The position numbers and the translations under genes are program-made. Under the pieces are notes generated by a model. That model worked only from the letters and a program-made list of their open reading frames with translations, did no database searches and had not been told where the DNA came from. DNA of 7,521 nucleotides from Promethearchaeia archaeon (GTDB taxonomy: Archaea; Asgardarchaeota; Lokiarchaeia; Sigyniarchaeales; SOKP01). Below, piece by piece: positions 2,056 to 7,521 of the stretch. The stretch's first letter is position 1. Every line of letters begins with the position of its first letter. The stretch lies in NCBI GenBank assembly GCA_046497275.1, contig JAWOFX010000102.1, forward strand, positions 1-7,521, in the 5' to 3' direction.

Positions 2056-3447
2056 TTACATCGTCTCTTTTCGTTTTTTATCATGCAAGTCTTCCTTTAA
2101 TCTTTCATTTTCAGCAACTCTTTCTTGAGTCAAAGGATAGAAATATAGCAAAATTAACGCAATTACCAATACAATTACTGGCCAGTAAATTTGGACAATT
2201 GGAAGTATTATTGGTCCTTGAGCAGGATCTCGAAGCTCATAATCTCCCCACCCTGCCCCACCAAAAACTAAAGCAAGAACGATAAGATTTATGGCACCAG
2301 ATAATCTATTAAATAATGCAACCACTCCGTAATAAGCTCCTTCTCTTCTTACACTAATACCGGAACGTACTTCATCATCATCAATCAACTCGGCTATTCC
2401 TTGATCATAAATATATAAAGACCCCCCAAGCCCAATTCCAACGAATATAATGAATATGTATGCAGTTAATTCATCGGTTGCAAATAGAAATAAGAGAAGA
2501 GAGGCTGCCCAGAATCCTGCTGCCATCATATAAGACTTTCTTACTCCAAATCTCTTTCTTAAGTACATCCAAAGAGGTGTTGAAGCTGCGGAAACAATGA
2601 GACCAACCAGCATTATTAAACCAGGATCCTCTGAATTAAGTAATTCATCGGCATATATTGGTATTACAGTTGGAAGAATTCCATAAACAATGAAAATCGC
2701 AAGGGCTATAACACAATAAATCATAAATGCTTTATTCTTAAATGTGATTTTATAAGATTCTTTCCAACTTGGTGCATTTTCTACGTCTTTGGAAAACTCC
2801 TTTCTTTCGAAGCATCCGAATTTTATCATAATCCCTATGGTTACACCCACAATAATAGCTGCAACGATACCATTAATTACATAAGGCATTGGATTACCTG
2901 CAACAGGAGCCCCAACTATGATTTCCGGTAGTAAAAAAGCTAAACCAACCCCCAAAATAGTGAATATATTTCTCCATATTCCTAATGAACTTCTATCTTC
3001 CATCGTAAGGAACATTTCAGGCCATAATCCATTAAAATTAACTGTATACGTTGTAAAAACTAAATCAAAAACAATTAAAATTATTACTAAATACAAGAAG
3101 GTCAAGAAATCATTTCCGGTTGGAGGTGTCCAGACTAATATCATTAATATACAGAGTGGAATCGTTGAGATATAGATCCATGGTTTTCTCCTTCCCCACT
3201 TTGTTTTTGTTCGATCTGATAATACGCCAATAAGAGGATCATCGATAGCATCCCAAATTGAATAGATAACAAATGCTAATGCGTACCAATAAATACTTAG
3301 ACCAATTACTGTATAATAAAATGTGAATCCAAGGAATAGAAAACTCTGTAGTGAAAGATTGTCCGCGAGTGTACCATTTGCGTAAGCAACACGAGTACCA
3401 AACGAAGTCTCTAAACCAATTTCTTTTTCAGATTTTTTTTGAGACAT
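2056..3447 (-). CDS. MFS transporter, glycoside-pentoside-hexuronide (GPH/MelB-like) cation symporter family (about 463 aa)
   Basis: Many hydrophobic segments consistent with a 12-TM MFS fold; GPH motifs WDAIDDPLIGVLSDRTKTKWGRRKPW and DDDE...RREGAYYG; C-terminal YPLT. Start moved from 3519 to the ATG at 3447 (MSQKKSE) because the extra 24 codons run through low-complexity A/T tracts and a TATA-like box lies about 22 nt upstream of 3447. Confidence 0.9.
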   Translation of the reverse strand: MSQKKSEKEIGLETSFGTRVAYANGTLADNLSLQSFLFLGFTFYYTVIGLSIYWYALAFVIYSIWDAIDDPLIGVLSDRTKTKWGRRKPWIYISTIPLCILMILVWTPPTGNDFLTFLYLVIILIVFDLVFTTYTVNFNGLWPEMFLTMEDRSSLGIWRNIFTILGVGLAFLLPEIIVGAPVAGNPMPYVINGIVAAIIVGVTIGIMIKFGCFERKEFSKDVENAPSWKESYKITFKNKAFMIYCVIALAIFIVYGILPTVIPIYADELLNSEDPGLIMLVGLIVSAASTPLWMYLRKRFGVRKSYMMAAGFWAASLLLFLFATDELTAYIFIIFVGIGLGGSLYIYDQGIAELIDDDEVRSGISVRREGAYYGVVALFNRLSGAINLIVLALVFGGAGWGDYELRDPAQGPIILPIVQIYWPVIVLVIALILLYFYPLTQERVAENERLKEDLHDKKRKETM

Positions 3448-3468
3448 GAATTTATTTTGTTTTTCTTT

Positions 3469-3476
3469 GTATAAAA
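3469..3476 (-). promoter_or_regulatory. TATA-like box for the GPH transporter
   Basis: TTTTATAC on the minus strand about 22-29 nt upstream of the ATG at 3447. Confidence 0.35.
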
Positions 3477-3625
3477 AATTAAAATCTATTGAGAATTTTT
3501 TTAAAAAAAAATCCAACAATATAAAGAGAGAATAAATTTTATTTAAATGCTGTAAAAATAGGAAAAGAATTTAGTCTTTATGAATTAATAATAATTAAAT
3601 TACACCTTTCGATGTGATATTTAAT

Positions 3626-4591
3626 ATGACAGATTGGAATTTACCTCCGCAAGGAGGACATATGGATTTACCTGATGGCATATATCTTCAAACTATGTCG
3701 ATTAAGGAAATAAATGACCGATTAAAAGAAAATGATATAATTATCATTCCTATCGGTTCTACCGAAAATCACGGACCTGCTGCGTGTATAGGAGAAGATA
3801 CATTTCTTGTGACAAGAATGGCCGAATTAATCGCCCAAAAAACAGGATGTACCGTTGCAGAGCCGATTTGGTACGGAAGTCATCCTTATCATCATGTTGG
3901 AATGCCTGGTTCTATTATTGTGCCTGAAGAGATTTTTAAAGGGATGATTCGAGCTGTAATTGCTGGATTATGGAACATGGGATTTCGAAAACAGATATTA
4001 TTAAACGGACATGGACAAGAGTACGTGATCCCATCAGCTATTCATGAATGGGCGAAAAACTATCAATTACCGGCCGTTCTCTGCAATGTGAATTGGTATC
4101 ATGCAATTCCTCAACAATGTATGGATCGAGAACATGGTGGTCCATTCGATACCCCTTTTATACATGCGGACGAGGCAGAAACCTCATTTTCGATGGCTCT
4201 CTTTCCAGAAATGATACATATTGAAGAAGCAGCAGATAATGAACCTCAAGGTTGGATGCCAGAGGGACACGTTGATAAAGCGGGGAATATTTATCAAAGA
4301 CCCATAAAGTGGTATGGACAAGTAGGATTTGGACCAATTGAAATCTCCGCTTATCCTGAGGGAAATGTTGGTAGTCCAAGTAAAGCATCATTGGAAAAAG
4401 GGAAACCTGGCATAGAAGATCTCTTAGATTACTTAGAAAAATTAGTTAATGATATTTTAGAGACGTTTCCACCCGGTAAATTGCCTCCTATAGAAGGAAT
4501 AACTCAAAGAGATCCAGAAGAGGTAAAAAGATATATTAAAGGTCCTCTAAAAGGGGGAAAAAGTATTTATGAATTACGCTATCCGCCCTAA
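3626..4591 (+). CDS. iolN: 3-dehydro-scyllo-inosose hydrolase (IolN-like, creatininase/amidohydrolase family; about 321 aa)
   Basis: Creatininase-fold metal motifs PIGSTENHGP, GEDT, NGHGQE and HADEAETS, plus long blocks I recognise from Thermotoga IolN (GEDTFLVTRMAE, EPIWYGxHPYHHxGMPG, WNxGFRKQILLNGHGQE, NWYHAI, TPFIHADE, GHxDKAGN, AYPEG, LLDYLEKLV). Start set at ATG 3626, preceded by GTGAT, rather than GTG 3614. Confidence 0.85.
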   Translation: MTDWNLPPQGGHMDLPDGIYLQTMSIKEINDRLKENDIIIIPIGSTENHGPAACIGEDTFLVTRMAELIAQKTGCTVAEPIWYGSHPYHHVGMPGSIIVPEEIFKGMIRAVIAGLWNMGFRKQILLNGHGQEYVIPSAIHEWAKNYQLPAVLCNVNWYHAIPQQCMDREHGGPFDTPFIHADEAETSFSMALFPEMIHIEEAADNEPQGWMPEGHVDKAGNIYQRPIKWYGQVGFGPIEISAYPEGNVGSPSKASLEKGKPGIEDLLDYLEKLVNDILETFPPGKLPPIEGITQRDPEEVKRYIKGPLKGGKSIYELRYPP

Positions 4592-4645: not shown

Positions 4646-5119
4646 TTATTCAATTTCTGACCCACAATAAGGACAATATATACTAGATTCGTCTGTATAT
4701 ACTCCACATCGTGGACAATATTTAGTTTTATTTTTTAGGACTTCCTTAACAGGATAGCTTTTAAAGTGACCACTTTTAGATGAGAATAACCCTTTTATTT
4801 TTCCAGATCCTCTTAAATCAAAGATAATGTCTCTTAAATCTTCTCTTGGAATACCTGTTTTTTGAGCAATTTCCTCTACAGAGACATTAGGATCCGATTT
4901 AAATTCTAAAATCACCTTATTCTTAAACCTTTCTCTATTTTGAAGAGCAAATAATTCATACCCTACAATAGTTAATCCTACCGCAATTAAAAACCATCCT
5001 CCCCACGATTTCAAGGACCAATTAATGAATATATAAATCCCCCATATAAAGAGCGCTCCTGCAATAAACAATAATAGAATTGACAAAGTTTTGTATCGAT
5101 TTCTCTTTCTATACTGCAT
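4646..5119 (-). CDS. Membrane-anchored winged-helix (PCI-like) + zinc-ribbon protein, paralogue A (157 aa)
   Basis: Two N-terminal hydrophobic segments; HTH/WH-like SVEEIAQKTGIPREDLRDIIFDLRGSGKIKGLFSSKSG; C-terminal YCPRCG...YCPYCG. GTGAT motif 3 nt before the ATG. Collinear with 5758..6315. The CDS is secure; the domain identity is inferred. Confidence 0.8.
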   Translation of the reverse strand: MQYRKRNRYKTLSILLLFIAGALFIWGIYIFINWSLKSWGGWFLIAVGLTIVGYELFALQNRERFKNKVILEFKSDPNVSVEEIAQKTGIPREDLRDIIFDLRGSGKIKGLFSSKSGHFKSYPVKEVLKNKTKYCPRCGVYTDESSIYCPYCGSEIE

Positions 5120-5321: not shown

Positions 5322-5678
5322 ATGACTGTAACTTTCGATCTTGACTCTATTCTAGAGAATTTGATGGACAAATTAGGGGAGAAAATATATTTTATTATTA
5401 TCTCTTCAGAAAATGGGGTTGTTATTAAGTCATATATCAATGAAGATGAATTTAATAAATCAGCTATAAGTTTAAATATATCTCAAGTTTATGAATCTTC
5501 TGAAGAGATAACGGATTCAATTGGAATCCATAAACCTGATTTTACGCTTATTCATAGTGATAATTTTTATATCTTATCTATGAAACTCTTAGATAATATT
5601 TTCATCTTATTAATGGAAGATCAAGTAGATTTAGGATTAGTGTTTCAAATTATTAATAGTTGTATTATCCCTTCTTAA
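5322..5678 (+). CDS. Roadblock/LC7 (MglB/LAMTOR-like) domain protein (118 aa)
   Basis: Size and pattern helix - FIIISSENGVVI (two strands with a G turn) - helix - three strands (FTLIHSDNFYILSMKLLDNIFILLM) - C-terminal VDLGLVFQII helix match the Roadblock fold. Confidence 0.75.
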   Translation: MTVTFDLDSILENLMDKLGEKIYFIIISSENGVVIKSYINEDEFNKSAISLNISQVYESSEEITDSIGIHKPDFTLIHSDNFYILSMKLLDNIFILLMEDQVDLGLVFQIINSCIIPS

Positions 5679-5757: not shown

Positions 5758-6315
5758 GTGATAAAGTTGAAGTATAAACGTAATCAATACTCAGAAGGCT
5801 CTTCGATATGTGCGATTATTATCGGTGCAATTTTTCTTTATTGGGGATTAAGGTATTATATTACTCCCAATATTCTGGATCCTCGTTGGTGGGTCTGGAA
5901 CTGGTGGCCACTCATTTTTCTTATAATAGGTGTTTCAATATTAGCAAGTCAATTTGCTGCTTTGATAAACCGTAGTAAATTAAGAAAAGTTGTAAAACAA
6001 GAATTTTTCAACAATCCAAATGCTTCAGTTGAAGAAATAGCTGCTAACACGGGTATTTCCATAAAAGATATACGAGCAATCATATTAGATCTTAAAGCTT
6101 CCGGAGAATTAAAGGGTAGATTTTCCTCATCAACAGGACAAATGAAATATACAGAAGTCCAGATGAAGGGAACTCCTCAGCCTATACCAGATCAAGGCAT
6201 AACTCCCCCTCCAGAGCCTAAAAAAGCAAACTATTGTCCAAATTGTGGAACTCCGGTTAATAAGGAAGATGCGATCTATTGTCAATATTGTGGCGCGAAA
6301 TTAAATTCAGAATAA
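5758..6315 (+). CDS. Membrane-anchored winged-helix (PCI-like) + zinc-ribbon protein, paralogue B (182-185 aa)
   Basis: Two hydrophobic segments; ASVEEIAANTGISIKDIRAIILDLKASGELKGRFSSSTG; Pro-rich linker; YCPNCG...YCQYCG. The start may be TTG 5767 (LKYKRNQY aligns with MQYRKRNRY of paralogue A), in which case GTGAT at 5758-5762 is the ribosome-binding site. Confidence 0.82.
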   Translation: MIKLKYKRNQYSEGSSICAIIIGAIFLYWGLRYYITPNILDPRWWVWNWWPLIFLIIGVSILASQFAALINRSKLRKVVKQEFFNNPNASVEEIAANTGISIKDIRAIILDLKASGELKGRFSSSTGQMKYTEVQMKGTPQPIPDQGITPPPEPKKANYCPNCGTPVNKEDAIYCQYCGAKLNSE

Positions 6316-6540: not shown

Positions 6541-6837
6541 ATGAGTGATATAGATAATCAGATTGAGAAATACGTAAAATATTTTAAGAAAAAAAAGAAT
6601 TTAGATTCGAAAAAGAAAGAGGAGATTGATAAAGTTCTTATCTCCGATAAATATTTTGAATTTATTGATAATGTGTATAATTATTTTAATTCAAAAAAAG
6701 GATCTAACTCGCAAGAAAATAAAGAACGTTTAGCTATTGAGTGTTATTTAGATGCTGATGAAGCAATAACTCACTTTTGGAAAGAATTATTGGGAAATAA
6801 CCTAACTGAAGAAATTCGTGCACATTTAAAAATTTAA
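6541..6837 (+). CDS. Hypothetical small charged, probably helical protein (98 aa)
   Basis: ATG start with GAGGT (6528-6532) 8 nt upstream; fills the gap between genes; natural-looking amphipathic composition. No family recognised. Confidence 0.7.
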   Translation: MSDIDNQIEKYVKYFKKKKNLDSKKKEEIDKVLISDKYFEFIDNVYNYFNSKKGSNSQENKERLAIECYLDADEAITHFWKELLGNNLTEEIRAHLKI

Positions 6838-6972: not shown

Positions 6973-7521
6973 TTAAGTCTCTGATTCATTAGGTATTGAT
7001 TCTCCTAATTCACTCAGATATTTCTTCCGTCTTTCCTCATGGATTTTAACCAAGGCGCTTTTCATTTCGTCAACAACTTCTCCAGTTAGGGGATAAAAAA
7101 TTACCCAGATGATAAAACCAAATAGAGCTACCAATCCAGGAATAAGTCCCATCGCAATATTTACACCGAGGAATGCATTAAATGATCCCATAATTGGTGT
7201 TAATCCTAATCCCTCAACATAGATTAAGCCAAATATTGTCATGAGAGTTGTGGGAGTTGCTAATGCAACACTAATCATAGGTTTGCTAATTAGAGGACCA
7301 ATACCGGCATATAATCCTTCGCGTCGTTCCCCTGATATCTTCCAAAAGTCATAATCAATTGTATCAGCTCGCATCGGATTGTGGAGAATGAAGTCTCCAG
7401 CAAACGCAAGAAACACTATTGAAAATCCAATGCATAATAAATACCATAGACCCGTAAAAGCAAGAGTAAAACTAAGTATAAATCCCAAAGCTAAGACTCC
7501 TTGATTAAAACTTAACGCTTT
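6973..7521 (-). CDS. Second GPH-family MFS transporter, 3' part only (5'-truncated by the window edge)
   Basis: The frame is open to position 7521 (KALSFNQGVLALGFILSF...), so TTG 7488 is internal. GPH C-terminal motif ADTIDYDFWKISGERREGLYAGI and a YPLT tail as in 2056..3447. Confidence 0.88.
   Translation of the reverse strand, partial: KALSFNQGVLALGFILSFTLAFTGLWYLLCIGFSIVFLAFAGDFILHNPMRADTIDYDFWKISGERREGLYAGIGPLISKPMISVALATPTTLMTIFGLIYVEGLGLTPIMGSFNAFLGVNIAMGLIPGLVALFGFIIWVIFYPLTGEVVDEMKSALVKIHEERRKKYLSELGESIPNESET

Follow-up and report, generated by a model that had tools for sequence, protein, structure and literature searches.

The contig C52 of a Lokiarchaeia metagenome-assembled genome (MAG; 188 contigs, 3.85 Mb, 98.9 per cent complete), which in its entirety (7,521 bp) makes up the window analyzed here, carries at 3626–4591 a gene that, judged by its sequence, encodes a genuine IolN-family metal hydrolase of inositol catabolism. 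Head to head with this gene lies GPH1, which encodes a GPH-family symporter. We consider it probable that iolN belongs to an inositol catabolic (iol) gene cluster conserved among relatives, that GPH1 came in with a block of genes inserted into this cluster, that the other genes of the block were lost in association with an insertion sequence (IS), and that GPH1 was left as an orphaned carrier of something other than inositol.

In an initial annotation of the window, GPH1 was proposed to import inositol or a related compound in a ‘rewired’ version of the Thermotoga pathway. Several of its simpler statements hold. The closest proteins and loci retrieved by similarity searches all derive from Promethearchaeota/Lokiarchaeia MAGs, in agreement with the ‘probable Asgard’ host; GPH1 (2056–3447, − strand) and the creatininase-fold gene (3626–4591, + strand) are indeed divergent, with a gap of exactly 178 bp (3448–3625); and no dehydrogenase, epimerase, or ATP-binding cassette (ABC) component is found among the eight open reading frames (ORFs) of the window, all of which were scanned against Pfam and NCBIfam. 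Because the window is one whole contig of a fragmented MAG, such absences from it carry little weight. Rfam and tRNA scans detected no RNA genes in the window. Its features are as follows:

1–2041, + strand: IS1634-family insertion sequence (NF033559, 280 bits, cut-off 100; DDE_Tnp_1; inverted repeats)
2056–3447, − strand: GPH1, intact 463-amino-acid (aa) GPH/MFS_2 cation symporter (PF13347, 206 bits, threshold 27; TIGR00792, 175 bits, cut-off 231)
3448–3625: divergent GPH1–iolN intergenic region, 178 bp, very AT-rich
3626–4591, + strand: iolN, 321-aa 3-dehydro-scyllo-inosose (diketo-inositol) hydrolase family, creatininase fold (NF041098, PF02633)
4646–5119, − strand: Tz_a, membrane protein with a C-terminal zinc ribbon (Zn_Ribbon_1)
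5322–5678, + strand: orf118, small conserved protein of unknown family, without a Pfam or NCBIfam match
5758–6315, + strand: Tz_b, paralog of the transmembrane (TM) and zinc-ribbon protein (Pfam, synteny)
6541–6837, + strand: orf98, small conserved ORF found near iolN in some relatives (synteny)
6973–7521, − strand: GPH2, C-terminal 182 codons of a second, distant GPH-family gene (PF13347, 44 bits)

Identity and distribution of the IolN hydrolase

The longest ORF of iolN spans 3614–4591, within which the ATG at 3626 is the likely start codon; it yields an N-terminus (MTDWNLPPQGGHMD) that is conserved among relatives. Against the NCBIfam equivalog hidden Markov model (HMM) NF041098, the protein scores 527.3 bits (cut-off 245) over model positions 1–307 of 307; among 14 control genomes, only Thermotoga maritima passes this cut-off. 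The protein also matches PF02633 with 168 bits and falls below the cut-offs of the other family models (creatininase TIGR04448, 91 vs. 235 bits; MftE, 46 vs. 172; ArfB, 30 vs. 180). Residues E35, H37, D46, H117, E120, H168, D170, E171, and E173 are invariant in 12 archaeal and bacterial IolN proteins, that of the window included, and the metal-site motifs of IolN (STE-x-HG, D, NGHG, and HA..E) align to creatininase 3no4; we found no solved structure of an IolN. In a representative library of 1.84 billion proteins, almost the entire IolN family falls into one 50 per cent cluster, and generic creatininases come next at about 30 per cent identity.

These scores, together with the phylogeny described below, corroborate the initial assignment of the protein to IolN rather than to generic creatininases or MftE. 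By homology to the T. maritima enzyme, the protein is predicted to open the ring of 3-dehydro-scyllo-inosose to 5-keto-L-gluconate. T. maritima IolN (TM0413) is described as the 3-dehydro-scyllo-inosose hydrolase of an IolG–IolM–IolN–IolO pathway (Rodionova et al. 2013, Environ Microbiol 15:2254, as cited in PMC5931981); the chemistry of the Thermotoga-type pathway is taken here from that citation and from PMC12632266.

In a phylogeny of 104 sequences, reconstructed with a quick method and from a sample that held no Thermotogota, 64 of the Asgard copies and the window protein form a single starred clade (65 rows), and the IolN group is split from creatininase outgroups by a branch labelled 99 and starred. 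The neighbors of the Asgard clade are a Bathyarchaeia/Nitrososphaerota group, which also contains the copy of Njordarchaeum, and beyond it lie sequences from Bacillota, Dictyoglomota, Aerophobetes, Armatimonadota, and Brocadiia, joined by short connecting branches. Identity across domains is 65–69 per cent. Deeper branches hold Thermococcus copies (47 per cent identity) and a divergent form, type-B IolN (54 per cent), from three genomes of the window’s genus. When 201 evenly sampled Asgard genomes were scanned, an IolN above the cut-off was found in 30, and 26 of these are among the 40 genomes sampled from the window’s family; the other Asgard families have almost none. The patchy distribution and the high cross-domain identity together indicate horizontal spread of IolN; Bathyarchaeia and anaerobic bacteria are the probable partners in a horizontal exchange of the module. 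Thus, of the transfer from bacteria that the initial annotation had suggested testing with such a tree, horizontal spread is indicated, and the tree leaves its direction undecided.

The type-B genes (loci L044, L045, and L046 in G006, G005, and G001, respectively) occupy the normal iolM–iolO–iolN position, and their products are less similar to the window protein than the bacterial copies are. In G001, a truncated type-A iolN (L046, 254–706) directly adjoins the type-B gene. This arrangement suggests that a xenolog replaced the earlier gene in place.

The iol cluster in Asgard relatives and in this genome

In a synteny sample of 65 Asgard iolN loci, an iolO-like gene is found near iolN in 57, canonically directly upstream and on the opposite strand, and iolM, the iolO-like gene, and iolN occur together in 46. 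Typically, a dehydrogenase gene (iolG or the gene for Z2, a Zn-dependent alcohol dehydrogenase [Zn-ADH]) is divergent from an importer gene (GPH or MFS), which is followed by iolM and, further on, by iolO divergent from iolN. The dehydrogenase/carrier pair upstream of iolM consists of IolG and a GPH protein at 11 of the 65 loci, IolG and an MFS protein at nine, and Z2 and an MFS protein at 11. MAG ABR06 (locus L073) is an annotated example: its IolG passes the equivalog cut-off (TIGR04380, 462 vs. 355 bits), and a GPH gene (2697–4091) lies between iolG and iolM. ABC genes are absent from this locus and from the window. Where Thermotoga relies on an ABC system, the Asgard iol clusters use secondary carriers, among which the GPH type recurs.

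The cluster is conserved in one Lokiarchaeia family. Within the window’s genus, the genome G004 has an uninterrupted Z2–MFS–iolM–iolO–iolN series and an IolN 91 per cent identical to that of the window. The GPH proteins encoded between iolG and iolM in 13 genomes are monophyletic (99, starred) and 63–91 per cent identical to each other; this iol-linked GPH clade is a better candidate for an inositol importer than GPH1.

At L073 (7098–7916) and some 14 other Asgard loci, a gene for a 272-aa protein without a Pfam or NCBIfam match is wedged between iolO and iolN, and a homolog occurs elsewhere in the window’s genome (G000:C109:28960–29757). The ESM Atlas places this protein near cupin-like clusters, which is a lead only and brings to mind IolB, the cupin of the classical route of inositol breakdown.

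In the window’s genome, contig C149 joins C107 and contig C52 joins C177, each through an exact 191-nt end overlap. The order on C149 and C107 is Z2 (−), an MFS_1 carrier (+), the creatininase-like gene Crea2 (−), a DegT aminotransferase gene (+), iolM (+), the iolO-like gene (−), and the contig end. A search of the genome for iolG, iolM, and iolO, as advised in the initial annotation, recovered, both on C107, iolM above its cut-off (NF041097, 507 vs. 450 bits) and, as the genome’s best match to NF041099, a full-length iolO-like gene for a TIM-barrel epimerase that scores 232 bits (cut-off 300). A relative of IolO with 35 per cent identity shows epimerase activity (PMC12632266). The search found no IolG equivalog: the best match to TIGR04380 reaches 154 bits (cut-off 355), and the IolG of L073 has at most 27 per cent identity to anything in this genome. 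The IolG position is occupied here by Z2, which resembles threonine and sorbitol dehydrogenases, and the canonical importer position is held by the MFS_1 protein on C149. A UxaA-type dehydratase domain and a KDPG aldolase of the downstream route are present; UxaE and UxuA of the Thermotoga route were not found in this genome, nor was a myo-inositol-1-phosphate synthase (domain PF01658), so any inositol used must be imported.

The pair of genes directly upstream of iolM on C107 (L012, 3–893 and 1028–2263), which encode the second, distant creatininase-family protein (ArfB-like, 52 bits) and the DegT/DnrJ/EryC1 aminotransferase, is confined to this genome. Because inosose aminotransferases are among the members of the DegT family, a link to aminocyclitols is conceivable.

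We regard it as quite unlikely that the Z2-type cluster handles another cyclitol, or a sugar acid by way of 5-keto-L-gluconate or a related diketone, with IolN acting on a non-canonical substrate. The missing IolG equivalog, the likeness of Z2 to threonine and sorbitol dehydrogenases, and the two additional genes beside iolM would fit such a role, as would the occurrence of an IolM–Z2–IolN–IolO module without IolG in Bathyarchaeia and Bacillota as well. However, IolN and IolM both exceed their equivalog cut-offs, and IolN is 80–91 per cent identical to copies encoded in clusters with a bona fide IolG such as that of L073. Moreover, IolG and Z2 interchange at one position in otherwise identical clusters, which suggests that they carry out the same step.

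GPH1, the inserted gene block, and the IS1634 element

The longest ORF of GPH1 spans 2056–3519; translation probably begins at the ATG at 3447, the position at which all orthologs start (100 per cent coverage from that methionine), and the stop codon is at 2056–2058. Orthologs have 53–89 per cent identity to it. Besides the window, GPH1 adjoins iolN at only one of the 65 Asgard iolN loci, that of the same-genus genome G002. Six further genomes, from at least five genera (G005, G006, G012, G013, G019, and G030), hold an ortholog (53–85 per cent identity) that is in each case followed by genes for a PIG-L protein and a G1PDH-like protein, with no iol genes within 8–10 kb of it. At three of the six loci, a Gfo/Idh/MocA oxidoreductase gene and a DegT aminotransferase gene follow as well; their orthologs in the window’s genome sit on another contig. 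In the 656-aa PIG-L partner, a neutral-ceramidase-like N-terminal region is fused to a PIG-L domain that is closest to archaeal diacetylchitobiose deacetylases (8bgn, 3wl4, and 3we7), and the G1PDH-like protein has 347 aa.

The same GPH1–PIG-L–G1PDH-like module is conserved across Asgard loci L139 (8963–16048; G006:C4), L140, L141, L142, L143, and L144, and from its gene content it looks like an uncharacterized uptake and processing route for amino-sugar glycosides. Adjoining the module at L139 (7231–8733; G006:C4, a genome of the window’s genus) is a gene for a 500-aa protein in which an actin domain is fused to C-terminal double zinc ribbons.

G002 connects this module to the window. On two contigs of that genome, iolN is divergent from GPH1, which is followed on its own strand by the gene for the 656-aa PIG-L protein and then by the convergent gene for the 347-aa G1PDH-like protein; next come iolO on the strand of GPH1, a TrmO-like gene, and iolM on the opposite strand. 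The three-gene block therefore lies between iolO and iolN. Neither the PIG-L nor the G1PDH-like gene could be detected in the window’s genome, and the site where they would be expected is occupied by the IS1634 element. The transposase ORF of this element (275–1927) is bounded by 25-nt terminal inverted repeats (1–25 and 2017–2041; 92 per cent complementary), and the element is present as a single copy in the assembly. Its right repeat ends 14 bp from the stop codon of GPH1, and the contig begins exactly at its left repeat; C107, in turn, stops close to the point that corresponds to the start of the G1PDH-like gene in G002.

We propose that a foreign block comprising GPH1, the PIG-L/ceramidase-like amidase gene, and the G1PDH-like dehydrogenase gene was inserted between iolO and iolN in an ancestor of this genome and G002, and that this insertion created the divergent GPH1–iolN pair. 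An IS-associated loss may then have removed the two enzyme genes of the block in this genome, and the assembly would have broken at IS1634. With these enzyme genes gone and IS1634 lying 14 bp past its stop codon, GPH1 would be an orphaned importer. It is probably not an inositol importer; the company of its orthologs makes an N-acetylated amino-sugar glycoside, such as chitobiose, the more likely substrate. In this account, the sequences themselves show the family memberships, the gene order, the insertion, and the structure of the IS, whereas the chemistry of the enzymes, a direct C107–C52 junction, and the substrate of GPH1 are inferred. Since iolM, iolO, and iolN are adjacent in relatives, most of the ‘rewired architecture’ put forward in the initial annotation comes down to a fragmented assembly and a recent insertion.

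It appears very unlikely to us that GPH1 is the pathway’s own importer, for inositol, inosose, or a simple inositol derivative, co-regulated with iolN from the 178-bp divergent promoter region. The head-to-head arrangement is conserved with G002, any inositol used would have to be imported, as no myo-inositol-1-phosphate synthase was found in this genome, and GPH1 falls in the same sub-branch of the GPH tree as the iol-linked clade located between iolG and iolM. Yet GPH1 is a paralog of that clade, with only about 40 per cent identity to it, and the gene of this genome that is closest to the clade is a different GPH gene, which lies between two GH29 genes. The six orthologs are tied to PIG-L and G1PDH-like genes and none is near iolN, and an MFS_1 protein already stands at the canonical importer site beside Z2 and iolM. 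A common regulatory motif was not found among the iol spacers either: 10- and 12-mers shared between the GPH1–iolN spacer and the Z2–MFS, Crea2–DegT, DegT–iolM, and iolO-upstream spacers were not above shuffled controls, the only palindromes are A/T runs, and the GPH1–iolN spacer is hardly similar to its counterpart in G002 or G004. The importer role assigned to GPH1 in the initial annotation is therefore not borne out by conservation, and the linkage of transporter and iolN is missing from relatives other than G002, an outcome that the annotation itself had named as telling against it. The idea of a GPH-type inositol importer survives for the separate iol-linked clade of other Asgard genomes.

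The GPH gene between the two GH29 genes (L137, 73–4830; G000:C55) is itself of note, since the alpha-L-fucosidase genes on both sides of it point to a probable locus of fucoside uptake.

More improbable still is a functional coupling in which the block would serve to take up and deacetylate a glycoside of the N-acetylglucosaminyl-inositol type, its insertion having been selected to feed inositol to IolM, IolN, and IolO before the enzymes were lost here through an IS-associated deletion: GPH carriers typically move glycosides, the PIG-L family includes N-acetylglucosaminyl-inositol and N-acetylglucosaminyl-phosphatidylinositol deacetylases, the PIG-L protein weakly matches the MshB and BshB models, and in G002 the iol cluster encloses the entire block, but the best relatives of the PIG-L protein are diacetylchitobiose deacetylases and not MshB (E = 9e-4), the block is unlinked to iol genes in six other genomes and shows no glycosidase that would free inositol, and the deacetylase gene was not detected in the window’s genome.

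Several observations weigh against the explanation that we prefer, in which a genuine iol cluster was interrupted by the GPH1 block. GPH1 is intact, its adjacency to iolN is common to G002, and it shares a sub-branch with the iol-linked clade, which together lend an inositol-related uptake role some plausibility. Unlike the two pairs of contigs joined above, C107 and C52 have no end overlap, so the junction between them is predicted from synteny with G002. The score of the iolO-like protein lies under the curated cut-off, and, without an IolG equivalog, the entry of myo-inositol into the pathway would rely on Z2 or another oxidoreductase. Finally, T. maritima was represented solely through the equivalog HMM and the control hit, which makes the identity to TM0413 and the place of that protein in the tree indirect.

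Neighboring genes, significance, and comparison with known systems

Proteins with TM segments and a zinc ribbon (one or two paralogs) and the 118-aa protein trail iolN in nearly all Asgard loci; homologs of Tz_a come after iolN in most of them, as do homologs of orf118 (49–82 per cent identity), which follow iolN and Tz. In the window’s genus, the order and orientation of these genes are rearranged relative to other genera. The proximity of Tz_a to iolN seems to reflect conserved gene order, and nothing evident ties it to inositol. GPH2, which is completed to 500 aa by C177, is 24 per cent identical to GPH1; it was rejected as an iol-type GPH (6973–7521 plus C177), given its 23–25 per cent identity to the iol-linked clade.

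A near-complete Thermotoga-type inositol catabolic module is carried by one Lokiarchaeia family, and inositol, from eukaryotic or archaeal lipids or from phytate, joins the predicted diet of these sediment archaea as a heterotrophic substrate. Full-text searches of one literature library turned up no publication on the breakdown of inositol by Asgard archaea or Lokiarchaea. The module offers three candidates for new specificities, namely the GPH-clade importer, the MFS importer, and the Zn-ADH at the IolG position. A bolder synthesis, which we hold to be unlikely, is that this family runs an oxidative inositol pathway that is modular and was acquired horizontally; in it, the iol-linked GPH clade would provide the first case of free inositol being carried by a GPH protein, Z2 would be a non-orthologous replacement of IolG, and, in this genus, the GPH1/PIG-L block would have been inserted to feed in an N-acetyl-glucosaminyl-inositol-like glycoside. 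The main value of the window is corrective: the apparent rewiring reflects a contig break, a recent insertion, and an IS, and GPH1 should not be annotated as an inositol carrier.

Compared with T. maritima, whose IolN equivalog HMM the window protein matches over its full length with the creatininase fold and the metal-ligand motifs conserved, this genome has iolM and an iolO-like epimerase gene, both of which adjoin iolN in relatives. It differs in its archaeal host, in the GPH or MFS secondary carriers that stand in place of the ABC system, and in that UxaE and UxuA of the downstream route were not found, no IolK kinase is seen, and a Zn-ADH replaces IolG in position. Creatininase (Pseudomonas putida, 1j2t; also 3no4), MftE, and ArfB share PF02633 with the window protein, and their E-x-H, D, H, and H/E metal-site residues align; they match it with 48–57 bits, are about 60 residues shorter, and lie outside the IolN clade in the tree, and the window protein stays under the cut-off of each of these families.

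GPH1 resembles the GPH family (TC 2.A.2; MelB, UidB/GusB) in its MFS_2 architecture throughout and in its best NCBIfam matches (gph, glucuronide carrier, and MelB), and differs in falling below the TIGR00792 cut-off; no member of the GPH family is known to carry free inositol. For the PIG-L domain that accompanies GPH1 orthologs, the closest solved relative is Dac of Thermococcales (8bgn, 3wl4, and 3we7); the Asgard protein has the extra neutral-ceramidase-like N-terminal region, and its gene was not detected in the window’s genome.

The Asgard IolN is already a known kind of protein, as NCBI records give the name 3-dehydro-scyllo-inosose hydrolase to such proteins from Promethearchaeia, Helarchaeota, Hodarchaeota, and Njordarchaeum MAGs, which are 68–92 per cent identical to the window protein and equal in length. 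Those of Promethearchaeia/Promethearchaeota, Helarchaeota, and Hodarchaeota fall in its clade, and that of Njordarchaeum groups with the Bathyarchaeia set. In the canonical loci of these relatives iolN is divergent from iolO, whereas in the window and in G002 it is divergent from GPH1.

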